The notes: a model not told the origin generated them from the sequence alone. A DNA stretch of 64,000 bases from an uncultured Zetaproteobacteria bacterium (GCA_964458185.1 CAYWFG010000008.1:2843-66842), one strand, 5' to 3'; positions 20,983-34,567 are shown, numbered from the stretch's first letter. Program-made: numbers and translations.

Positions 20983-21336
20983 TCACCGAATCGGGCATGG
21001 CGGACAACAACAATCAAACGCTTCTTTAGTGCGTATACGGTACAATGTATCGACAGGGAAAACAGCCACCAAACCATCGCCTGATTGCCCCGTGTAAGCC
21101 GTCTCCATAATACATTGGGCAATGCTATCGGTTTCAGATGCATCGCAAAAAATTTCAATTTGCGCATGGTTGCACATCATGTCTTCTCGATAATAATCGT
21201 GGTATTCACCATAACCACGCACCTGTGTGACACTGATGCCAGAGACATTGATGTCACGCAATGCCGCTTCAACTTTTTTTAACACCAAACTGCTGATCAC
21301 AGCGGTAATACGTTTATAATTCACATGGTCATTCAT
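20983..21336 (-). CDS. PII (GlnB)-superfamily protein of the heavy-metal-efflux-linked type, with a Cys-rich C-terminal tail
   Basis: KRITAVISSLVLKKVEAALRDINVSGISVTQVRGYGE...GDGLVAVFPVDTLYRIRT has PII topology. The T-loop is short and non-canonical. Tail is FDCCCPPCPIR. GGGAG Shine-Dalgarno before ATG 21336. Confidence 0.7.
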   Translation of the reverse strand: MNDHVNYKRITAVISSLVLKKVEAALRDINVSGISVTQVRGYGEYHDYYREDMMCNHAQIEIFCDASETDSIAQCIMETAYTGQSGDGLVAVFPVDTLYRIRTKEAFDCCCPPCPIR

Positions 21337-21403
21337 GATTAAAACTCCCTCTTTCATCAAATGTGCAAGCCATGAGTCACCATAGCTTGCACAAATTCAC
21401 CCT

Positions 21404-22086: not shown

Positions 22087-22695
22087 TTATTTCACCGCAC
22101 CAAACGGCAAAACCCGTGCGAAAGGTCGATGCCCAGCGCGCATGTGCATCAATGCCATAAACACATGCCCAATCACATACAGCCATAATAATTTAGATAA
22201 CAATGAATGGCTGCTAAGCAATAGCTCCATGCCTTGTGAGATATGCTCATGGCTATGCCCACTTGGTTCACTGGTGAACCAAATAATGGTTCCTGTAATC
22301 GCCATACCTGCCATCACCAATAACCCCAGCATTTCAATAATCATGGATAAGGCATTATTGGGTTGAATAAATACAGACTTGCCGAGCAATGCAGCAGGCA
22401 GCTTGCCAAGCACTACTTTTGCATCGTGCCAATGTTGTAGCGACAAAAGCACTGCCATTTGTCGTTTGTTTTGCTCACCACGCATAACAATTGCCCACAG
22501 CACATTCGCCAATACAATGACCGCAACAATTAAGCCATCCAGTTGATGCAAACTCATCAAAAGATTGCCAAAGGGTGTGCCATGATCGTCAGGGTGTGAC
22601 ATCAATAAACTGCTTGATAGTTGAAACAGCACGCCAACAATCAAGCCTGCATGCAGCCAACGGGTGGTGACATGATAACCTTGCATAGTCATCAA
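22087..22695 (-). CDS. cytochrome b561-family membrane protein
   Basis: Four TM helices with conserved His positions (TRWLHAGL..., HQLDG..., HVFMALMH). The ATG overlaps the DUF411 stop (ATGA). Confidence 0.6.
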   Translation of the reverse strand: MMTMQGYHVTTRWLHAGLIVGVLFQLSSSLLMSHPDDHGTPFGNLLMSLHQLDGLIVAVIVLANVLWAIVMRGEQNKRQMAVLLSLQHWHDAKVVLGKLPAALLGKSVFIQPNNALSMIIEMLGLLVMAGMAITGTIIWFTSEPSGHSHEHISQGMELLLSSHSLLSKLLWLYVIGHVFMALMHMRAGHRPFARVLPFGAVK

Positions 22696-23180
22696 TAGTG
22701 CGCGAAGACTTCTGTTTTTCCGCTGCCGTTAAACGACAATACATCATAGCCTTCGGTGGGTAAGCCTTCTTTTTGCATGCCTGGTGATTTCATCGGCATG
22801 CCAGGGGCAGTAAGCCCCACAATATCAGGACGTTCTTTTAATAAACGTGCCACGTCTTTGGCTGGGACATGACCTTCTATAATATAACCGCCAATCAATG
22901 CCGTATGGCATGATTCCAATGATTTAGGTACGCCGTATTGTTTTTTGATGGCATTCATATTGTCACGTTTGTGTTCGGTGACGGTAAAGCCTGCTTGACG
23001 CATATGGCTTGCCCAATCACCGCAACAGCCACAGGTCGGGGATTTGTACATATCAATGGTTTGACCATTTGATTGTGCCACCGTTGTTGTTTTTTCTTCG
23101 GCTATTGCGGTATTCACCGCATAGGCTGTAAATAACATTGCCATCATAGCAAATAAGCCAGTTTTTTGATAAAGTTTCAT
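22692..23180 (-). CDS. copG: DUF411 / CopG-family periplasmic copper-binding protein
   Basis: SPTCGCCGDWASHM Cys cluster and GYIIEGHVPA...APGMPMKSPGM. Signal peptide from MKLYQKTG (ATG 23180, AAGGAA Shine-Dalgarno). Confidence 0.8.
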   Translation of the reverse strand: MKLYQKTGLFAMMAMLFTAYAVNTAIAEEKTTTVAQSNGQTIDMYKSPTCGCCGDWASHMRQAGFTVTEHKRDNMNAIKKQYGVPKSLESCHTALIGGYIIEGHVPAKDVARLLKERPDIVGLTAPGMPMKSPGMQKEGLPTEGYDVLSFNGSGKTEVFAHY

Positions 23181-23206
23181 GGTGTTCCTTTTGGTTTTTA
23201 TCTGTG

Positions 23207-23240
23207 CTTTTGCTCCCACACAAGCGCATGGAAGCAAAAG
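23207..23240 (-). other. intercistronic stem-loop (11-bp stem) between the mini-lipoprotein gene and copG
   Basis: On the mRNA strand, CTTTTGCTTCC pairs with GGGAGCAAAAG around a 12-nt loop. No U-tract follows. Confidence 0.5.
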
Positions 23241-23258
23241 TAAGGGATTCAATGGTCG

Positions 23259-23405
23259 TTAGCGAATAATATCAAATGAGCGGTCATGTGCATTTTTACC
23301 TGTATGCTTCATCGTTGTGCCATCAGCATTATCGTGTGTATTGGCACAAGCACCCAAACTGAGGGTAAACATCAGCATCATCGCCATCATTATATATTTT
23401 TTCAT
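23259..23405 (-). CDS. unannotated 48-aa lipoprotein (absent from the ORF track)
   Basis: MKKYIMMAMMLMFTLSLGACANTHDNADGTTMKHTGKNAHDRSFDIIR. Lipobox is LGAC. AAGGAG lies 8 nt upstream, inside the end of cusA2. The ATG overlaps the cusA2 stop (ATGA). Confidence 0.65.
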   Translation of the reverse strand: MKKYIMMAMMLMFTLSLGACANTHDNADGTTMKHTGKNAHDRSFDIIR

Positions 23406-26400
23406 ACGTCACTCTCCTTTACCATCGATTTTTCTTGCCATTGCAGCAATAAACCATACACAGCAGGCAATACCACAAGGCAAAGAATGGTAGTTGTTAC
23501 CATACCACCAATCATGGGCGCTGCAATGCGTTGCATCACACTGGAACCTGTGCCATCGCCCCACATAATCGGTAACAAACCTGCAATCACTGCCGTGGCA
23601 GTCATGGCAATGGGGCGCACCCGTTGCGCTGTGCCTTGGAGAACAGCGGCATACATTTCTTTTGGCTCTAATGGGCGTTGCAATACTTTACGCTTTTCAT
23701 CCACGGTTTGTGCAATGAACGTTAATACCAACACGCCAATTTCTGCGGCGACACCTGCCAGCGCGATAAAACCTACACCGACGGCAACACTTAAATTATA
23801 ATCCAGCAGATAAATCAACCAAATACCGCCGACCATGGCAAACGGCACAGAAACCATCACCACCAAGGGTTCGGTTAAGCGTTGAAAGTTAAAGTACAAT
23901 AGCAAGAAAATAAGCAACAACACCAATGGTGCAACAATTTGCATCCTTGCCTTGGCACGCTGCATGTATTCGTATTGCCCTGACCATATCACATTATAAC
24001 CTGCTGGAATTTTCACTTTTTCGGCTACAATTTGTTGTGCCTTAGTCACATAACCGCCAATATCGGAAGTTTTGATGTCCACATAAATCCATGTATCCAG
24101 CAACGAATCTTCACTTTTAATCACGGGTGGGCCACGGGTTAATGATAAATCTGCAACCAATGACAGAGGAATTTGCTCACCGTGGGGCGTGGGAATCAAT
24201 ACCCGTTTGAGTGCCTCAGGTGAATCACGCACTTCACGCGCATAACGCAGGTTCACAGGGTAGCGTTCCAACCCTTCCACGGTTTTGGTGATGTTCATGC
24301 CACCAATGGCTGATTGAATGACATCTTGCACGTCACCCACGGTTAAACCATAGCGCGAAGCTTCTTTGCGGTTGATTTTAATATCGTAATAATACCCACC
24401 CACCGCACGATCCCCCATCGCAGTTTGGGTTTCAGGTAGCATTTTTAACACGCCTTCAATCTCTTTGCCCAGACGTTGCAACTCTTCAAGGTTATCACCC
24501 ACGATCTTGATGCCTACAGGGGTTTTGATGCCTGTAGAAAGCATGTCGATCCGTGTTTTTATCGGGTATGTCCACGCATTGGCAATACCGGGGAAGTTGA
24601 TGGCTTGATCCATTTCCTTCATCAATTCCTTGCTGGTTTTTTCAGGATTTGGCCATGCTTCATGCGGTTTTAGATGAATGGTGGTTTCCATCATCGATAA
24701 CGATGCAGGGTCAGTCGCGGACTCTGCTCGCCCTACTTTACCAAATACCGTTTCCACTTCAGGAAACCGTTTGAGTATTTGATCGGTACGCTGCAAAATC
24801 TCTTTTGCCTTGGTAATAGAAATACCAGGGAATGCCGTCGGCATATACAAAATATCGCCTTCATCCAGTGGCGGCATGAACTCGCTGCCCAGCTTGCTTA
24901 ACGGGTACGCACCACTGACCAGCAGCACCACGGCAATCATCATGGTCATCCATTTAAAACGCATCGCCACCGTTAAAATGGGGGTGTGCAACCATTGCAA
25001 AAAACGATTGATCGGGTTTTTATGCTCAGGCATGATTTTTCCGCGAATAAAATAGCCCATCAACAAAGGAACCAAGGTAATCGCCAAAATCGCCGCTGCT
25101 GCCATCGAATAGGTTGCGGTAAACGCCAATGGTTTAAACAAACGCCCTTCTTGTGCTTCCAGCGCAAAAATCGCCAAATAAGACACCGTGATAATCAACA
25201 AAGAGAAAAACAACGCAGGGGCAACTTCTTTGGAGGCCGTGCCAATCGCTGCCCAATGTTCTTTGTTGTTGAGTGCACCGCCTTTTTGTTGCGTTCGCTG
25301 CTCCAGATGCTTGTGGGCATTTTCGATTAACACAATCGCGCCATCAACCATTGCCCCGAGCGTAATTGCGATACCACCCAACGACATAATGTTCGCGGCA
25401 AGCCCTTGGGTTTGCATCAAAATAAAGGCAATCAACACCCCCAAAGGCAAGGTGATAATCGCCACCAAGGCAGAGCGGGCATGCATGAGAAACAACAAGC
25501 AAACCAGCCCAATAACAATAAATTCTTCAATCAGTTTTTCTTTTAAATTGTCCACAGCGCGTTCAATTAAGCCGCTGCGGTCATAAACAGGAATAATCTC
25601 TACGCCTTCGGGAAGCCCTTTGCGTAATTCATCGAGTTTTTCTTTCACCGCATTGATGGTGGCTAAAGCATTTTCACCAAAGCGCATAATCACCACGCCG
25701 CCAGCGACTTCACCTTCGCCATTTAGCTCAACCAATCCACGGCGTAATTCAGGGCCTAAATGCACATGGGCTATATCACGAATACGAATCGGCGTACCCG
25801 TAGTGTTTGAACCAACAGGAATATCATTGATGTCTTCAATGCTTTGTATATAGCCTAATCCACGCACCATGTATTCGGTTTCAGACATTTCGAGTAAGCG
25901 TCCACCAACATCGTTGTTGGAGCGTTTGATCGCATATTTGACGGCAGATAATGGAATATTGTATGCCAGCAAAGCATCAGGATCGACTTCCACTTGGTAC
26001 TGTTTAACAAAACCACCAATGGAGGCGACTTCAGATACGCCATTAACGGTTTGCAAGCGGTAGCGTAGATACCAGTCTTGAATGGAGCGCAGTTGGGATA
26101 AATCATGTTTGCCTGTTTTATCAATCAAAGCATATTCATAGACCCAACCGACACCCGTGGCATCAGGGCCTAATGTAGGGGTTACGCCTTCGGGTAAAAA
26201 CTTGGAAGCATAATTAAGGAATTCTAACACACGGCTACGCGCCCAATACATATCGGTGCCATCTTCAAAAATGATGTAAACGAACGAAAAGCCAAAAAAT
26301 GAATAACCACGCACTGTTTTTGTTTTGGGTACGGCAAGCATGGCAGTGGTTAAAGGGTAGGTGACTTGGTCTTCGATCACTTGTGGGGCTTGACCGGGGA

Positions 26401-26557
26401 ATTCAGTGAAAACGATAACTTGGACATCCGATAAATCAGGGATGGCATCTAGGGGAATGGTTTTGACTGCCCATAAACCACCTAGGAATAATAGCATGGT
26501 TGCCATTAATACTAAAAATGGTTTTTTTAATGAGATGTCTACGATATTTTGGATCAT
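23402..26557 (-). CDS. cusA: CusA-type (monovalent Cu/Ag) heavy-metal-efflux RND permease, copy 2
   Basis: 1051 aa. TM4 motif LGAMVDGAIVLIEN (A-x5-D-x6-E, Cu/Ag type). Met triad contexts conserved (ILYMPT, SLSMMETT, RIDMLSTG). Confidence 0.9.
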   Translation of the reverse strand: MIQNIVDISLKKPFLVLMATMLLFLGGLWAVKTIPLDAIPDLSDVQVIVFTEFPGQAPQVIEDQVTYPLTTAMLAVPKTKTVRGYSFFGFSFVYIIFEDGTDMYWARSRVLEFLNYASKFLPEGVTPTLGPDATGVGWVYEYALIDKTGKHDLSQLRSIQDWYLRYRLQTVNGVSEVASIGGFVKQYQVEVDPDALLAYNIPLSAVKYAIKRSNNDVGGRLLEMSETEYMVRGLGYIQSIEDINDIPVGSNTTGTPIRIRDIAHVHLGPELRRGLVELNGEGEVAGGVVIMRFGENALATINAVKEKLDELRKGLPEGVEIIPVYDRSGLIERAVDNLKEKLIEEFIVIGLVCLLFLMHARSALVAIITLPLGVLIAFILMQTQGLAANIMSLGGIAITLGAMVDGAIVLIENAHKHLEQRTQQKGGALNNKEHWAAIGTASKEVAPALFFSLLIITVSYLAIFALEAQEGRLFKPLAFTATYSMAAAAILAITLVPLLMGYFIRGKIMPEHKNPINRFLQWLHTPILTVAMRFKWMTMMIAVVLLVSGAYPLSKLGSEFMPPLDEGDILYMPTAFPGISITKAKEILQRTDQILKRFPEVETVFGKVGRAESATDPASLSMMETTIHLKPHEAWPNPEKTSKELMKEMDQAINFPGIANAWTYPIKTRIDMLSTGIKTPVGIKIVGDNLEELQRLGKEIEGVLKMLPETQTAMGDRAVGGYYYDIKINRKEASRYGLTVGDVQDVIQSAIGGMNITKTVEGLERYPVNLRYAREVRDSPEALKRVLIPTPHGEQIPLSLVADLSLTRGPPVIKSEDSLLDTWIYVDIKTSDIGGYVTKAQQIVAEKVKIPAGYNVIWSGQYEYMQRAKARMQIVAPLVLLLIFLLLYFNFQRLTEPLVVMVSVPFAMVGGIWLIYLLDYNLSVAVGVGFIALAGVAAEIGVLVLTFIAQTVDEKRKVLQRPLEPKEMYAAVLQGTAQRVRPIAMTATAVIAGLLPIMWGDGTGSSVMQRIAAPMIGGMVTTTILCLVVLPAVYGLLLQWQEKSMVKESDV

Positions 26558-26581
26558 TGTTTTGCTCCTTTTCGGCTATGC

Positions 26582-26603
26582 GGGCAGGCACATAGGCCTG
26601 CCC
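26582..26603. repeat. GC-rich hairpin element GGGCAGGC-ACATAG-GCCTGCCC between cusA1 and cusA2
   Basis: Read directly. A near-identical copy in opposite orientation lies at 29781-29802. Confidence 0.6.
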
Positions 26604-26611
26604 CTACGGGG

Positions 26612-29600
26612 TTATTTGTGGGCTGCGCGTTCTTTTGCCTGTAATACCATGCCATAAATGACGGGTAGGACTAGCAGGCTTAACAATGTTGCCGTGACCA
26701 TGCCACCAATCATCGGCGCTGCGATGCGTTGCATGACATCGGAGCCTGTGCCTCCGCCCCACATGATCGGCAGTAAACCTGCAATGACGGCGGTGGCTGT
26801 CATGGCAATAGGGCGTACTCGTTGGGTTGTACCACTGGCTACGGCTTCGATGATGTCTTGGGATGATAATGCACCGCGTGTTTCGGCACGGCGTTTGGCG
26901 ACCGATTGATCGATAAAGGTCATCACCAACACGCCGATTTCTGCCGATACCCCTGCTAGCGCAATAAAACCAACAGCGACTGCAACACTCATATTATAAC
27001 CCAAATACCAAACCAGCCAAAAGCCACCAATCAAGGCAAAGGGAATAGAGAGCATGACCACCACAGGTGAGGTGAAATTTCTAAAGTTAAAATACAGCAA
27101 CAAAAAGATCGTCAACAGAGTAATCGGAATCACCACGCGAAGCCGTTCTGCGGCACGTTCCATGTATTCAAACTGACCAGACCACACCAGCGAGTAACCC
27201 GCAGGAATTTTCACTGTTTCTGCCACCTTCTTTTTAGCTTCAGCGACATAACCACCAATATCGGAGGTTTTAATATCGACATAAATCCATGCGTTCGGCG
27301 TGGCATTTTCTGTTTTAACCGATGGGGGGCCACGGCGAAGCTTTAACGTTGTCACCAAAGATAAAGGGATTTGTGTGCCTGTCGGCGTAGGGATCAACAC
27401 CCGTTTAAGTGATTCCATATTATCGCGCAATTCACGCGGATAACGAATATTAATCGGGTAACGCTCTAAGCCTTCCACCGTTTCACTCACATTCATGCCA
27501 CCAATGGCAGATTGAATCACATCTTGCACATCTCCCACCGTTAAACCATAACGAGCAGCTTCTTCACGGTTGATGTCAAAATCAAGGTAATACCCCCCTG
27601 CGGCACGGTCAGCAAAGGCAGACAATGTATCGGGAAGTTGTTTAATAGCGCGTTCAATTTCGCCAGCAACATCTTCTAATACCTGCAAGTCAGGCCCTGA
27701 TAGTTTAATGCCAATCGGGGTTTTAATCCCCGTAGAGAGCATATCAATCCGTGTTTTAATTGGGTATGTCCACGCATTGGCTAGCCCTGGGAATTTGATC
27801 GCAGCATCCATTTCTGCCATCAATTCTTTGGTTGTTTTGCTAGGATCTGGCCATTCCGATTTGGGTTTTAAACGAATGGTAGTTTCTAGCATCGAGAGTG
27901 GTGCAGGGTCAGTGGCTGTTTCTGCACGCCCTACCTTACCAAAGGTATGATGCACTTCAGGGAAGGTTGCCAGAATTTTATCCGTTTGCTGCAATAACTG
28001 CTTTGCCTTGGTAATAGAAATACCAGGGTAAGTCGTTGGCATATAGAGTATATCACCTTCATCCAAGGGCGGCATGAACTCTGAGCCTGTATTCATCAAC
28101 GGGTAGGCTGTTGCACCCAGCAAGATAAGGGCAAAACTTAGCGTGATAAAACGCCAACGCAGCGCAAAACCAAGCAATGGCGCATGCACCGACTTTAAAC
28201 CTTTATTGAGCCAATTATGCTCTTCACTGGGGATTTTTCCGCGAATCATCAGTCCCATCAGCACAGGAACCAAGGTAACGGCAAGCAATGCTGCCGCAGC
28301 CATCGCATAGGTTTTGGTGAACGCCAGCGGTGCAAACAATCGCCCTTCTTGCGCTTGCAAAGTAAACACAGGCAAAAATGATACCGTAATAATCAGCAGC
28401 GAGAAAAATAGCGCAGGACCGACCTCTTTGGAGGCAGCAGTAATCGCCTGCCATCGTGCCGTGGTATTGTTGCTTTGTTCAGGGGTAAGATTTTCTAGGT
28501 GCTTATGGGCATTTTCGATCATCACAATTGCCCCATCAATCATCGCACCAATGGCAATGGCAATACCGCCAAGACTCATAATATTGGCAGATAAGCCCTG
28601 CCATTGCATAATCATAAAAGCGATCAAAATTCCAATTGGCAAACTGATAATTGCCACCAAGGCACTGCGCGCATGCATTAAAAAGATCAAGCAGATGATT
28701 GCCACTACAATCGACTCTTCAATCAATTTACCCTTGAGATTTTCCACGGCACGTTCAATCAAATCACCACGGTCATACACGGGTATAATTTCTACACCTT
28801 CGGGCAAGCCTTCTTTTAGATCATCCAGTTTTTCGCGTACACGTTCAATGGTGGCTAAGGCGTTTTCACCATAACGCATAATAATAATGCCACCGACCAC
28901 TTCGCCTTCACCATTTAGCTCAACCAGTCCGCGCCGCAATTCTGGCCCAATATGAATATTCGCCAGTTGTTTAAGAAAAATTGGCGTACCATTATCATCC
29001 ACACCAACAGGAATGACCTCTAAATCATGCAAGCTTTTGATATACCCCAACCCACGCACCATGTATTCGGTTTCGCTCATTTCCACCAAACGCCCACCAA
29101 CATCATTATTCGAGCGTTGAATGGCATGTTTAATTTTTGCAAGTGGAATATTGTAGGCAAGCATGGCATCAGGGTTTAACTCAATTTGGTATTGTTTAAC
29201 ATAGCCACCAATCGAAGCCACTTCAGATACGCCTTGCACGGTTTGCAAAGGGTAACGTAAATACCAGTCTTGAATCGAACGGAGTTGCGATAAGTCGTGT
29301 TTTCCTGTTTTATCTACCAAGGCGTATTCGTAAATCCAGCCAACACCTGTGGCATCAGGGCCTAACTTTGGCGAGACACTGGCTGGCAAACGGTCTGCTG
29401 CATAATTCAAGTATTCCAGCACCCGCGTCCGCGCCCAATACATATCGGTGCCATCTTTGAAAATAACATAGACCATCGAAAAACCAAAAAACGAATAGCC
29501 CCGTACCACCTTGGTATTCGGCACAGAAAGCATCGCCGTGGTCAACGGGTAGGTTACTTGATCTTCGACAACTTGCGGTGCTTGCCCTTCAAACTGGGTA

Positions 29601-29749
29601 AATACAATCACCTGCACATCAGAAAGATCAGGGATGGCATCCAGTGGCGTGGCTTTCATCGCCTGAAACCCTGCAAACGAAATCAACAATGCAGCAATCA
29701 ATACCAAAAATCGGTTCCGAATGGATACATCAATAAGCGAACGAATCAT
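26612..29749 (-). CDS. cusA: CusA-type (monovalent Cu/Ag) heavy-metal-efflux RND permease, copy 1
   Basis: 1045 aa. TM4 motif IGAMIDGAIVMIEN. Met triad contexts ILYMPT, PLSMLETT and RIDMLSTG. Confidence 0.9.
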   Translation of the reverse strand: MIRSLIDVSIRNRFLVLIAALLISFAGFQAMKATPLDAIPDLSDVQVIVFTQFEGQAPQVVEDQVTYPLTTAMLSVPNTKVVRGYSFFGFSMVYVIFKDGTDMYWARTRVLEYLNYAADRLPASVSPKLGPDATGVGWIYEYALVDKTGKHDLSQLRSIQDWYLRYPLQTVQGVSEVASIGGYVKQYQIELNPDAMLAYNIPLAKIKHAIQRSNNDVGGRLVEMSETEYMVRGLGYIKSLHDLEVIPVGVDDNGTPIFLKQLANIHIGPELRRGLVELNGEGEVVGGIIIMRYGENALATIERVREKLDDLKEGLPEGVEIIPVYDRGDLIERAVENLKGKLIEESIVVAIICLIFLMHARSALVAIISLPIGILIAFMIMQWQGLSANIMSLGGIAIAIGAMIDGAIVMIENAHKHLENLTPEQSNNTTARWQAITAASKEVGPALFFSLLIITVSFLPVFTLQAQEGRLFAPLAFTKTYAMAAAALLAVTLVPVLMGLMIRGKIPSEEHNWLNKGLKSVHAPLLGFALRWRFITLSFALILLGATAYPLMNTGSEFMPPLDEGDILYMPTTYPGISITKAKQLLQQTDKILATFPEVHHTFGKVGRAETATDPAPLSMLETTIRLKPKSEWPDPSKTTKELMAEMDAAIKFPGLANAWTYPIKTRIDMLSTGIKTPIGIKLSGPDLQVLEDVAGEIERAIKQLPDTLSAFADRAAGGYYLDFDINREEAARYGLTVGDVQDVIQSAIGGMNVSETVEGLERYPINIRYPRELRDNMESLKRVLIPTPTGTQIPLSLVTTLKLRRGPPSVKTENATPNAWIYVDIKTSDIGGYVAEAKKKVAETVKIPAGYSLVWSGQFEYMERAAERLRVVIPITLLTIFLLLYFNFRNFTSPVVVMLSIPFALIGGFWLVWYLGYNMSVAVAVGFIALAGVSAEIGVLVMTFIDQSVAKRRAETRGALSSQDIIEAVASGTTQRVRPIAMTATAVIAGLLPIMWGGGTGSDVMQRIAAPMIGGMVTATLLSLLVLPVIYGMVLQAKERAAHK

Positions 29750-29828: not shown

Positions 29829-31307
29829 TTATTTAGGCATTTCCATATCGCCCATATTCATGTCATCCATCTTGTCCATATCCATATCGCCCATATCCAT
29901 ACCTTTAGGTGCTACAACCTTAGGTTCTTGTTTCTTCATCATTTTGGCAGTGGCTTCTTTAAGTTTTGACTCAGAGTCAATCAAGAATTGGCTAGAGGTC
30001 ACGACAATCTCACCCTCTTTCAAACCATTAACAATTTGCACCATGCCATCAGCTTCCACGCCCAAAATAACCTTGCGTGGATCAAACTTACCTGCACCAC
30101 GCTGCACAAATACTTGCTCTTGTTCACCCGTGCGCACAATCGCTTCTGATGGAATAACAATGGCATCAACCTGCTTACCCGCTCTCACATTCACATTGGC
30201 AAACATTTCAGGCTTTAGCACCAAATCACTGTTATCAAATTCCAAACGAATTTTAACGGTGCGGGTTTTTGCTTCTAAGTAGGGGTAAATGTAACTTACT
30301 TTACCGATAAAAGTTCTCCCCGGTACGCCAGCGATTTTCATTTCAGCATCATCGCCTTCACGCACCCAAGGTAGATCATCTTCGTACAGATCTACAATCA
30401 CCCAAATATGGGTAAGATCAGCAATCATGTACAATTCAGTGGAAGGTGTGATCCGTTCCCCTTCACGTACGCCAATGTTCATGATTGTGCCATTAAAAGG
30501 TGAGTGGATATGCAGTGCTTTAATGACTTTGCGTGTGCGTTTTAATTTTCTAATTTGATGTTTGGGTACATCCAATAAATCAAGTCGTGAATACGCCGAT
30601 TTCAATAAATTTTTAGCTCCTTCACGCACATCAGGGAAAGGACTGTTCTTTAAAATATCAACGTTGTTTAATGCCAAAATATATTCTTCTTGTGTAGCGA
30701 CCAACTGCGGCGAATAAATCGCCATCAACATCGTATCTTTAGCAACGGTGTCACCCGTCTTGTTGATAAATAATTTTTCTACCCAGCCATCATACTTAGG
30801 GTGCAAACGTGCTACACGCTCTTCATCAAAAGTGACGCGCCCAATGGTGCGAATATCACGCGATAGTGTGATGCGTTTTGCCGTAGTGGTACGAACACCG
30901 ATATTTTGTGCCAGCGTACCATCAATTTTTACCGTGCCAGCCAACGATTTTTCATCACCACCACCATCGGCATACACGGGAATATAATCCATGCCCATTT
31001 CATCTTGCGCAGGAACAGGTGAAGTAATATTGGGATTCATCGGGTTGCGGTAAAACAATACTTTTTTTTCTTTGGGGGAATTCTCTTCGGCATAGACAGG
31101 CACATAATCCATGCCCATAGAATCTTTGGCGGGTACTTTGGATGTAGCCGTAGGATCCATGGCATTACGGTAAAAAAGAATTTTTCGTTCGTTACTAGCC
31201 GCTGGGGTTGAAGGGGATTGATTGGCGTAATACTGATTGCCAAAGTAGCCAGCCCCTGCACCGATAAGCAAGGTGACGATGGCAGTGCCGATAATGGATT
31301 TGTTCAT
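29829..31307 (-). CDS. cusB: CusB-type RND periplasmic adaptor with two N-terminal heavy-metal-binding repeats and a Met/Asp-rich tail
   Basis: Repeats ILFYRNAMDPTATSKVPAKDSMGMDYVPVYAEE and VLFYRNPMNPNITSPVPAQDEMGMDYIPVYADG. MFP barrel/hairpin body. Tail is GMDMGDMDMDKMDDMNMGDMEMPK. Confidence 0.85.
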   Translation of the reverse strand: MNKSIIGTAIVTLLIGAGAGYFGNQYYANQSPSTPAASNERKILFYRNAMDPTATSKVPAKDSMGMDYVPVYAEENSPKEKKVLFYRNPMNPNITSPVPAQDEMGMDYIPVYADGGGDEKSLAGTVKIDGTLAQNIGVRTTTAKRITLSRDIRTIGRVTFDEERVARLHPKYDGWVEKLFINKTGDTVAKDTMLMAIYSPQLVATQEEYILALNNVDILKNSPFPDVREGAKNLLKSAYSRLDLLDVPKHQIRKLKRTRKVIKALHIHSPFNGTIMNIGVREGERITPSTELYMIADLTHIWVIVDLYEDDLPWVREGDDAEMKIAGVPGRTFIGKVSYIYPYLEAKTRTVKIRLEFDNSDLVLKPEMFANVNVRAGKQVDAIVIPSEAIVRTGEQEQVFVQRGAGKFDPRKVILGVEADGMVQIVNGLKEGEIVVTSSQFLIDSESKLKEATAKMMKKQEPKVVAPKGMDMGDMDMDKMDDMNMGDMEMPK

Positions 31308-32602
31308 GGTTGATCCTTAATGGTTTGAATGGGTGTGCCTACGGCAGCTTCAAGGCGTGCCAAGGCTTGATTGGCTGTGCTGATCGCTTTCCAATACTGG
31401 GTTTCGTAGTTGTAACTGGTGATTTGACTGCGCACAAGGTTGAGGAAATCCACCTTGTTCACTTGGTAGCCTGCCAACATCGAAGCAACCGTTTGTGTGG
31501 CTTGGGGGATAATCCCCGTTTTAAACAACAGTGCTTGACGAGTCGCTGTTTGATAATCACTGACCGATTGGCTGATGTCTGTTTCCATGGTTAAGCGGCG
31601 ATCTTCTAGTGCAAAAGTCGCTCGTGCGGTGTCTGCCTCGCGTTGTGCTAATGCGCGGTCTTGTTTGGTATCGGTGAAAATAGGTAAATTCATGCTGAAC
31701 ATAATGCCCGTTAAATCGCTGCGACCTGCCCGCATACCATAATTTCCGCCAAGGGAAAAATCAGGGTAATAATCTTTTTTTGCTAATTCAACACGCGCTT
31801 TTGCTGCATCAATATGCTTGCGCTGCGCATCAAGCCATGGACGCGAAGCCAATGCGGTAGTGCGTAACAGTGATTCATCAGGAAGTGTATTTAATTGTTC
31901 AGAAATAGTTGCAGGCAAGGTGATTTGCGCATCTGCGCGGCGTTGCATCAAGGTGTTGAGTGCCGCCTGTTGATCGCGGCGAGTTCCTTTAAGAGAAATC
32001 TCACTATCTAACAACTTAGATAATTCAAGTTGTGCCAACAATACATCCGATTGTAAGCCTTGCCCTGTTTTGTATTTGCTGTCTGCAATACGAACAAATT
32101 GACGCAATAAACTTTGATTGCGTTGAACGATACGCAATGCTTGATCGACATAAACCAAGTTCCACCAATACATGTGGATATTCCGCTGCAACACCAAGCG
32201 AATTTCAGCGACATCCAACAATGCCGCCTGTGCTACAAAATCAGCACTTTTAGCGCGCAACGCCAACTTACCAGGGTACGGTAAGGCTTGAGTCAAACCT
32301 ACTTGAGTCTGGGTCATTGCTTCACGGCTTAAAGAAGGATTATTCAATGGAACATTCAGTATATTAAAATTAAACCGTGGATCGGGCAAGGTGGATACTT
32401 GCGCGGGGACTTCTGCCAATGCTTTGGCGCGTTCGCTTAAGCCTGTTAAAGCTGGATGCGTGGCAATGCTTTGCACGGCATCTTTTAATGTTAATGCTTT
32501 CGATGCATCTGCACTGTGTGCCGTCACCGTCACACCCCAAGCAAGCAACATACTCGCCAGCACTGCCCGCATGGGGGTCAGTGTATAAAGATAAGGCATC
32601 AT
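31304..32602 (-). CDS. cusC: TolC-family outer membrane factor (CusC-like)
   Basis: 432 aa with two OEP repeats. AGGAGG Shine-Dalgarno. Overlaps the cusB start by 4 nt. Confidence 0.8.
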   Translation of the reverse strand: MMPYLYTLTPMRAVLASMLLAWGVTVTAHSADASKALTLKDAVQSIATHPALTGLSERAKALAEVPAQVSTLPDPRFNFNILNVPLNNPSLSREAMTQTQVGLTQALPYPGKLALRAKSADFVAQAALLDVAEIRLVLQRNIHMYWWNLVYVDQALRIVQRNQSLLRQFVRIADSKYKTGQGLQSDVLLAQLELSKLLDSEISLKGTRRDQQAALNTLMQRRADAQITLPATISEQLNTLPDESLLRTTALASRPWLDAQRKHIDAAKARVELAKKDYYPDFSLGGNYGMRAGRSDLTGIMFSMNLPIFTDTKQDRALAQREADTARATFALEDRRLTMETDISQSVSDYQTATRQALLFKTGIIPQATQTVASMLAGYQVNKVDFLNLVRSQITSYNYETQYWKAISTANQALARLEAAVGTPIQTIKDQP

Positions 32603-34490: not shown

Positions 34491-34567
34491 CGGGGCGTAG
34501 CGCAGCCTGGTAGCGCACCAGACTGGGGGTCTGGTGGTCGGAGGTTCAAATCCTCTCGTCCCGACCA
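34491..34567 (+). tRNA. tRNA-Pro (anticodon GGG)
   Basis: A 77-nt cloverleaf folded by hand: acceptor CGGGGCG/CGTCCCG, D arm GCGC, anticodon stem CCAGA/TCTGG with loop CTGGGGG, T arm GGAGG-TTCAAAT-CCTCT, encoded CCA, then a T-run. Confidence 0.9.

Follow-up and report, generated by a model that had tools for sequence, protein, structure and literature searches.

A tandem pair of CusA-type permease genes behind a single adaptor gene, conserved in Zetaproteobacteria

The stretch of DNA analysed here (the window) comprises 64,000 nucleotides of an uncultured Zetaproteobacteria bacterium (GCA_964458185.1, CAYWFG010000008.1:2843-66842). On its minus strand, two tandem genes for CusA-type permeases of the heavy-metal efflux (HME) branch of the resistance–nodulation–division (RND) family—cusA1 and cusA2—follow a single gene for an outer-membrane factor (OMF) and a single gene for a CusB-type periplasmic adaptor (Table 1). 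The same order OMF–cusB–cusA1–cusA2 is found in 12 independent assemblies of Zetaproteobacteria (Mariprofundaceae), the window included. With guarded confidence we read the pair as two complete CusA isoforms that share CusB and the OMF and that probably also mix stochastically within trimers; this reading is favoured over a dedicated heterotrimer, over mere dosage redundancy, and over a role of cusA2 unrelated to the upstream partners. A conserved two-permease operon of the HME-RND type appears to be new: so far, the layout had been catalogued in multidrug pumps of the MdtABC kind only. In the following, L001–L170 are the locus labels and P0004–P0009 the homologue labels of this analysis; L081 is the locus of M. 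ferrooxydans PV-1 and L014 that of a Ghiorsea metagenome-assembled genome (MAG).

Two CusA-type permeases with one set of partners

An earlier note on this DNA, written from the sequence by eye, had delimited cusA1 and cusA2 and given their protein lengths, and both coordinates and lengths (Table 1) are exactly as claimed. Its estimate that the proteins are three-quarters identical was slightly too high: the full-length alignment gives 70% identity (BLASTP, 731/1047) with 85% positives and two gaps. The note had also held that the second gene is no assembly duplicate, and indeed the DNA identity is 70.8% over ~3 kb, with 22 shared 20-mers. An assembly duplicate or chimera is ruled out by this divergence (71% DNA identity) together with the recurrence of the arrangement in 12 independent assemblies.

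Both proteins match the CusA/CzcA model TIGR00914 (cusA1 with 1268.6 bits, cusA2 with 1246.1 bits; cutoff 701) and stay far under all cutoffs of the multidrug RND models, with the MdtB and MdtC models reaching 233–262 bits versus cutoffs of 1584–1774. Over their full length, cusA1 is 55% and cusA2 54% identical to E. coli CusA, which is also the best match in a search of the Protein Data Bank (PDB) run for cusA1—at 1274 bits, compared with 542 bits for the divalent pump ZneA. A divalent, Czc-like second pump is ruled out by the methionine triad described below and by best matches to CusA rather than ZneA, the PDB search being that for cusA1. Among named proteins, the closest to the argininosuccinate synthase of the window are those of Mariprofundaceae, Mariprofundus, and Zetaproteobacteria (82–93% identity), a group that also supplies the nearest relatives of both permeases; the window thus comes from a zetaproteobacterial iron oxidiser. 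The Ghiorsea MAG encodes one CusA, to which cusA1 is 88% identical, and locus L170 is 98% identical to the window. An exact-match look-up of cusA1 gave no match. Judged by these comparisons, both copies are intact, full-length permeases of the CusA (monovalent-metal) type.

The functional residues were compared in an alignment of both copies with E. coli MG1655 CusA and 106 relatives, and E. coli numbering is used throughout. The signature of transmembrane helix 4 (TM4) that the earlier note had pointed out, IGAMIDGAIVMIEN/LGAMVDGAIVLIEN, is present in both copies and aligns around D405. The sequence contexts that it had given for the methionine triad also fall into register with E. coli CusA: ILYMPT lies on M573, PLSMLETT or SLSMMETT on M623, and RIDMLSTG on M672. 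These three methionines and E625 are kept in both copies and in 108 of 108 other aligned sequences. A wider set of twelve residues—M573, M623, M672, E567, D617, E625, K678, R83, R669, D405, E939, and T987—is likewise complete in the two copies and in every one of the 37 zetaproteobacterial CusA sequences aligned (9 A1, 21 A2, and 7 of the PV-1 group, where A1 and A2 denote the cusA1 and cusA2 types). Of the transmembrane methionine pairs M410–M501, M403–M486, and M391–M1009, cusA1 keeps six of six residues and cusA2 five of six. The missing one is M410, which is replaced by Leu in 28 of 28 sequences of the A2 and PV-1 types; L410 also occurs in some stand-alone pumps, so that M410 may not be a feature that defines a CusA. 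Each permease agrees with CusA in its family match and its periplasmic binding site, and of the proton-relay residues D405, E939, and K984 it keeps the first two.

The partners of the two permeases are single, as the earlier note had stated: tblastn over the 64-kb window finds one adaptor gene and one OMF gene. An alignment of 387 residues, the N-terminal Met motif (M49/M64/M66 region) included, shows 31% identity between the adaptor and E. coli CusB, and the CusB model NF007303 gives the adaptor 219 bits, under the cutoff of 390 bits. The adaptor bears two tandem N-terminal Met-site modules, FYRNAMDP..MGMD and FYRNPMNP..MGMD, the second of which aligns to the M49/M64/M66 region of E. coli CusB, and a Met/Asp-rich C-terminal tail. 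A tie between the doubled module and tandem cusA is ruled out by module counts: among ten tandem loci, seven carry one module and three carry two, as does the window, and among the non-tandem loci a single module is found in 57, two in 12, and none in 11. For the OMF, the name cusC given in the earlier note can be retained for its operon position only. The protein belongs to the OEP family and is only faintly similar to E. coli CusC (E = 0.005); no lipobox Cys is found in its N-terminus, and it falls below the NodT and TolC cutoffs. By its sequence, it is a non-lipoprotein subtype filling the CusC role in a Cus-type pump.

Conservation and history of the pair

A phylogeny that would date the duplication and a survey of whether the tandem pair is conserved had been proposed in the earlier note; their outcome is an ancient duplication whose two products have been kept together in the 12 assemblies. 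A genome scan with cusA2 as query, covering one genome per GTDB species, yielded 80 loci, of which four show the order OMF–cusB–cusA–cusA. All four (L001, L004, L006, and L007) are zetaproteobacterial, and in each the upstream copy is nearer to cusA1 and the downstream copy nearer to cusA2. The contigs of the closest CusA2 homologues, inspected subsequently, added the tandem loci L082, L083, L165, L166, L167, L169, and L170. Tandem cusA genes are absent from the remaining 76 loci of the genome scan and from the 80 metagenome loci listed, where the listed relatives are at most 73% identical. Adjacent cusA genes are also absent from the two plasmids inspected, the closest one (Methylomonas) and one of Alteromonas macleodii. 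Among the sampled loci, the tandem pair is thus restricted to Zetaproteobacteria. In the metagenome locus L105 (2436-5879), the match to a cusA homologue comes in two pieces (~73% and ~55% identical, ~280 nt apart), which is either a split gene or a gene with an insertion.

A neighbour-joining tree was built from 109 CusA sequences. It unites all downstream copies in a single clade, whose bootstrap value is 100% both with all columns and without the N-terminal 210 columns. This A2 clade is sister to a single-copy clade that includes M. ferrooxydans PV-1 (74–91% bootstrap). The upstream copies are split between two robust groups: the first contains the window and L082 with the single-copy loci L014 and L009, the second L083, L001, L004, L006, and L007. 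A single origin of the tandem arrangement is likely. Over 11 tandem loci, A1 and A2 orthologue distances are correlated with r = 0.88, a value that none of 5000 Mantel permutations attained, and the within-locus paralogue distance of 0.30 equals or exceeds every orthologue distance among the tandem loci. Paralogue distance and co-divergence together therefore mark the pair as older than the radiation of these lineages and as inherited as a unit. A recent in-situ duplication is ruled out by the paralogue distance of 0.30 and the fully supported clade of downstream copies.

The sister position of the A2 clade to single-copy pumps could also be taken to mean that cusA2 is no partner of the upstream CusB and OMF. 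It would then have been inserted from another operon, with its partners elsewhere or among the downstream accessory genes (for the 48-residue lipoprotein, DUF411, and cytochrome b561), or with a substrate other than Cu(I)/Ag(I). The genes after A2 do resemble those after PV-1 cusA (DUF411, redoxin, P-II, MerR), and a small lipoprotein open reading frame (ORF) is translationally coupled to cusA2. We nevertheless regard such a separate role as very improbable: the Met triad and the charged residues of cusA2 are fully CusA-like, no second adaptor or OMF is encoded in the 64 kb, and cusA2 co-diverges with A1 over the whole radiation. In addition, candidate CusB-contact positions such as R771 and R777, which are a lead only, are equally kept in both copies.

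Both copies are under strong purifying selection. Compared with L170, dN/dS (the ratio of nonsynonymous to synonymous substitution rates) is 0.016 over 402 codons of cusA1 and 0.023 over 1051 codons of cusA2, with dS = 0.45. Between loci dS is saturated, and dN is the same for both copies in eight of eight locus comparisons. Decay of one copy is ruled out by the intact reading frames and by dN/dS of ~0.02 for each. In L083 (6830-13153), residues 51–200 of the two CusA copies are 100% identical, in contrast to 60–90% elsewhere, and this tract is, as read from the alignment, a gene conversion between the paralogues. Such conversion is found in one of the 11 tandem loci, and the window shows none.

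It is conceivable that the two genes are equivalent and merely raise efflux capacity in metal-rich vent and iron-mat habitats. The catalytic residues are all identical in both copies, the constraint on both is equal, the relatives stem from hydrothermal and iron-mat MAGs, and the conversion in L083 indicates interchangeable parts. Yet duplicates kept for dosage are usually young, homogenised, or lost. Here, the copies differ by 30% and have stayed in separate clades through the whole radiation, with dS saturated between loci; gene conversion is limited to the one locus; and the differences are fixed, lineage-specific, and placed at the functionally named positions M410, K482, and P463. Redundancy for dosage alone is therefore an unlikely account of the pair.

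Two isoforms or one mixed pump

Compared with the background consensus of the other aligned CusA sequences, A2 is marked by V349I, A399T, I400L, M410L, F461Y, P463A, G476K, K482A, P620S, and L872M. Over the A2 clade, position 463 is either A or V, and P620S lies three residues before M623. The fixed differences between A1 and A2 reside mostly in the membrane domain and are clustered in TM4–TM6. Hereby, cusA1 keeps M410, K482, and P463 as in E. coli, along with all three transmembrane methionine pairs. Some A2-clade permeases (P0004, P0007, P0008, and P0009) carry low-complexity inserts of 25–45 residues, rich in Q, K, E, and S, in the cytoplasmic loop right after TM4; the cusA2 of the window is free of such an insert.

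Cryo-EM work on E. coli CusA assigns the pair M410–M501 to the cytosolic entrance of a methionine channel through the membrane, lets a proposed proton wire begin at K482 on the periplasmic side, and has TM4 couple proton import to metal export (PMC8092243). With these roles, A1 would represent the canonical design and A2 a variant in coupling or entrance. Most of the A2 transmembrane signature is shared by the PV-1-type single pumps, and stand-alone pumps of Gammaproteobacteria and other bacteria show parts of it: T399, A/S482, and K476, in some cases L410 or S620. The A2 design hence seems to be a self-sufficient natural variant rather than a crippled subunit.

Both genes are probably expressed together. 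The spacer of the window contains an 8-bp GC-rich hairpin (GGGCAGGC/GCCTGCCC) without a T-run, which is followed by the Shine-Dalgarno sequence AAGGAG at a distance of 7 nt from the cusA2 ATG. The fold of this hairpin (-20.9 kcal/mol) is not significant against shuffled sequences (z = -1.28), and a search for terminator-like sites gave none at the spacer on the minus strand. Spacers of 12–54 nt with a Shine-Dalgarno sequence are found in eight of the 12 tandem loci. The simplest reading of these features is that cusA1 and cusA2 would be co-transcribed, with translation started independently. A conserved motif, CTTGACYTRTGYCCYGYACATRGC, lies between cusA1 and cusA2 in L001 (9893-9916), L006 (9936-9959), and L169 (7692-7715), where the spacers measure 70–334 nt. 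It consists of a TTGAC element followed by a ~19-nt spacer and looks like a MerR/CueR-type promoter. The window lacks this motif, and no internal promoter was found there.

We picture the Mariprofundaceae locus as a tripartite efflux operon for Cu(I)/Ag(I) made up of the small ORF, OMF, cusB, cusA1, cusA2, and accessory genes. Both permeases would be made from one transcript and would have one CusB hexamer and OMF trimer as their common docking partners. With such shared docking, the cell would possess two types of pump core, probably alongside trimers in which the copies are mixed stochastically. Mixing is suggested because the trimer-interface hairpin (residues 220–230; PMC8092243) is near-identical in the two copies—segment 215–235 shows one conservative difference (V/L) in the window—and because protomers of E. 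coli CusA bind and export independently (PMC8092243). The independence of the protomers also means that nothing would force a defined stoichiometry, and the gene conversion over residues 51–200 in L083 points to this part being interchangeable between copies. As a working hypothesis, A1 would accept Cu(I) from the cytoplasm as well as from the periplasm. In A2, with L410, A482, K476, and A463, entry from the cytoplasm might be changed or weakened and the proton path changed; speculating from these residue identities, A2 might be tuned to a different metal load or to a different regime of pH or proton-motive force.

The earlier note had offered two possibilities, a heterotrimer as in MdtB2C or two pumps sharing CusBC. 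Sharing is the one that we favour, from the lone operons of relatives, the full residue sets, the signature found in stand-alone pumps, and the promoter-like motif; the obligate heterotrimer found no support. An obligate or strongly preferred CusA1/CusA2 heterotrimer would be an HME analogue of MdtB2C of independent origin, in which labour is divided between protomers: one with M410 and K482 for cytoplasmic Cu(I) entry and standard proton coupling, and one with L410, A482, and K476 for periplasmic capture. Several features agree with it. The order A1 then A2 is fixed in 12 of 12 loci, the spacers are short in eight of them (12–54 nt), the copies co-diverge, and the trimer-interface loop is near-identical. 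Furthermore, the lineage-specific differences are grouped in TM4–TM6, the meeting place of proton and metal relays (PMC8092243), and MdtB2C sets a precedent (PMC7015380). Against this stand the lineages themselves, each of which also occurs alone: an A1-type permease is the only one in the complete operons of L014 and L009, the A2-sister type is alone in M. ferrooxydans PV-1, and in L168 an A2-clade permease comes with a cusB and an OMF of its own (order A–B–C). All tested binding-site and relay residues are present in both copies, which leaves no degenerate subunit, unlike the division of labour in MdtB/MdtC; A2 signature residues occur in stand-alone pumps; and CusA protomers need no coupling between them. 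The promoter-like motif in L001, L006, and L169 suggests separate control as well. Because each lineage also occurs alone and the A2 signature is found in stand-alone pumps, an obligate heterotrimer in the manner of MdtB2C is not supported, and we hold even a strongly preferred one to be quite unlikely.

Some observations weigh against the reading of two isoforms with shared partners. In 11 of 12 contexts, members of the A2 clade proper follow an A1 copy, always in the order A1 then A2, as a dedicated heteromer would show. The history of the pair is taken from neighbour-joining only, and this tree does not resolve the deep phylogeny, as monophyly of the two groups of upstream copies receives 16% bootstrap support. 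The functional meaning of M410L and K482A is suggested by work on E. coli only. Furthermore, at the position of K984—the 'proton sweeper' of E. coli CusA—both copies and each of the 37 zetaproteobacterial CusA sequences have Ile, and 40 of the 71 other CusA homologues have I, V, or L there; the periplasmic pair M271–M755 is not conserved either (L and N in both copies). With these differences, the relay and coupling details of E. coli CusA may not generalise to these pumps.

The locus, its neighbours, and known systems

The features of the locus are collected in Table 1. The small ORF on the upstream side of the OMF gene encodes Cys/His motifs (HCNAD..., CFHCEEP) and has an L007 homologue in the same place (tblastn). 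ORFs of 124–166 residues without a Pfam match precede the OMF gene in L081, L082, L083, L165, L167, and L169 as well, and the ORF of the window may be the first gene of the locus. The OMF stop and the cusB start overlap by 4 nt.

Table 1. Features of the cus locus in the window, listed in the direction of the minus strand.
Feature	Position	Strand	Evidence and remarks
Small ORF, 149 aa	32746..33195	(-)	No Pfam/NCBIfam match; adjoins OMF gene on upstream side
Outer-membrane factor (OMF, 'cusC' by position)	31304..32602	(-)	PF02321 OEP, E = 2.4e-41; signal peptide
CusB-type periplasmic adaptor, 492 aa	29829..31307	(-)	PF16576 HlyD_D23, E = 9e-78
cusA1, CusA-type HME-RND permease, 1045 aa	26612..29749	(-)	TIGR00914 match
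Intercistronic spacer cusA1–cusA2, 54 nt	26558..26611	(-)	Sequence read
cusA2, second CusA-type permease, 1051 aa	23402..26557	(-)	TIGR00914 match
Lipoprotein-like ORF, 48 aa	23259..23405	(-)	Lipobox LGAC; 4-nt overlap with cusA2 stop codon
DUF411 (CopG-like, CGCC motif) periplasmic protein	22692..23252	(-)	PF04214, E = 1.9e-26
Cytochrome b561-family membrane protein	22087..22695	(-)	PF01292, E = 2.5e-14; start overlaps DUF411 gene
Secreted His/Met-rich protein, 167 aa	21404..21907	(-)	No Pfam/NCBIfam match
P-II-like small protein	20983..21360	(-)	PF00543, E = 2e-15

Downstream of cusA2, the 48-residue ORF (MKKYIMMAMMLMFTLSLGAC...) is kept after cusA2 in L170 (4455-4601) and L082 (11459-11605); the three share a C-terminal H[DE]xxFDI[IL][RK] motif. 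From its sequence, this small lipoprotein-like protein is a candidate for an accessory partner of the pump. For CusF, no match was found among the annotated neighbours (Pfam/NCBIfam). The secreted His/Met-rich protein is a candidate periplasmic copper-binding protein in this cusF-less operon: homologues adjoin cusA in L001, L002, L004, L006, L007, L014, L016, and L031 (tblastn), with one to three copies per locus in zeta- and gammaproteobacterial loci. Following the P-II-like gene along the minus strand comes a gene for a MerA-like flavin adenine dinucleotide (FAD) oxidoreductase.

The P-II-like, cytochrome b561, and DUF411 genes are recurrent neighbours of cus operons over the Zetaproteobacteria. 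DUF411 adjoins cusA in L004, L007, L009, L031, L081, L165–L167, and L169; the cytochrome b561 gene recurs in L004, L007, L082, L169, and L170; and a P-II-like gene stands beside cusA in L001, L004, L006–L008, L010, L028, L031, L081–L083, L166, L167, and L169. A tRNA gene lies at 34491-34564 (+), ~1.9 kb past the operon start, and the single-cusA locus of M. ferrooxydans PV-1 (L081 1-3860) adjoins two integrase genes. The tRNA gene and the PV-1 integrases are hints at a mobile cus locus, notwithstanding the G+C content of the window, which is flat over the region.

The closest well-described system is CusCFBA of E. coli (CusA structures 3K07, 3T51, 3NE5, 7KF5-8). Both share the logic of a tripartite operon, a CusB-like adaptor with the N-terminal Met site, and permeases with the M573/M623/M672 site, its charged neighbours, D405, and E939. 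In contrast, the window carries two permease genes and lacks an adjacent cusF or cusRS, its OMF is no CusC-type lipoprotein, and its adaptor bears two Met modules and the Met/Asp tail. M271–M755 and K984 are absent from both copies, as are M410 and K482 from A2. Within the Zetaproteobacteria, the single-copy operons of PV-1 and Ghiorsea have the same OMF–cusB–cusA backbone and the same accessory neighbours (DUF411, P-II-like, His/Met-rich protein, and cytochrome b561), but one permease gene only. The PV-1 permease bears an A2-like transmembrane signature, and that of Ghiorsea is the close relative of cusA1 mentioned above.

Gene pairs of the MdtABC, MuxABC-OpmB, and SmeIJK type resemble the pair of the window in placing tandem paralogous permeases behind one adaptor, in an ancient duplication, and in conservation across a clade. 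The window pair differs from them in belonging to the HME branch rather than to HAE-1 clade B, in its independent origin, and in the higher identity of its paralogues (70% versus ~50% for MdtB/MdtC). Also unlike in that group, both copies look fully competent, and each lineage occurs alone in some genomes. A heterotrimer is known for MdtB2C, whereas one of CusA1 and CusA2 would be hypothetical.

The earlier note knew of no such arrangement for HME-RND pumps, and it appears undescribed: a survey of 6205 RND permeases in 920 genomes found 203 tandem permease pairs, all of which belong to HAE-1 clade B (MdtBC/MuxBC/SmeJK; PMC10872679). In the literature searched, tandem cusA genes are undescribed save for a passing mention of two adjacent CusA/CzcA genes on the Alteromonas CUKW chromosome (PMC8478169). 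Where 'cusA1/cusA2' appear as names in the literature, the genes belong to separate operons or the names stem from automatic numbering.

The heteromeric RND pumps known so far are MdtBC, MuxBC, and SmeJK only, and tandem permease genes are their hallmark in genomes. A second, independent, and evolutionarily stable two-permease operon, in the metal-efflux family, offers a natural test of whether RND trimers mix paralogues in general and of whether one set of adaptor and channel can serve two pump cores. The pair may simply be two homotrimeric pumps that share partners. A dedicated heterotrimer, if true, would be the first heteromeric heavy-metal RND pump, with one CusB6–OMF3 conduit draining both compartments. 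The contrast at M410 and K482 is a natural experiment on a debated question, whether CusA takes up metal from the cytoplasm or from the periplasm, and the operon bears on how iron-oxidising Zetaproteobacteria handle copper at hydrothermal vents.

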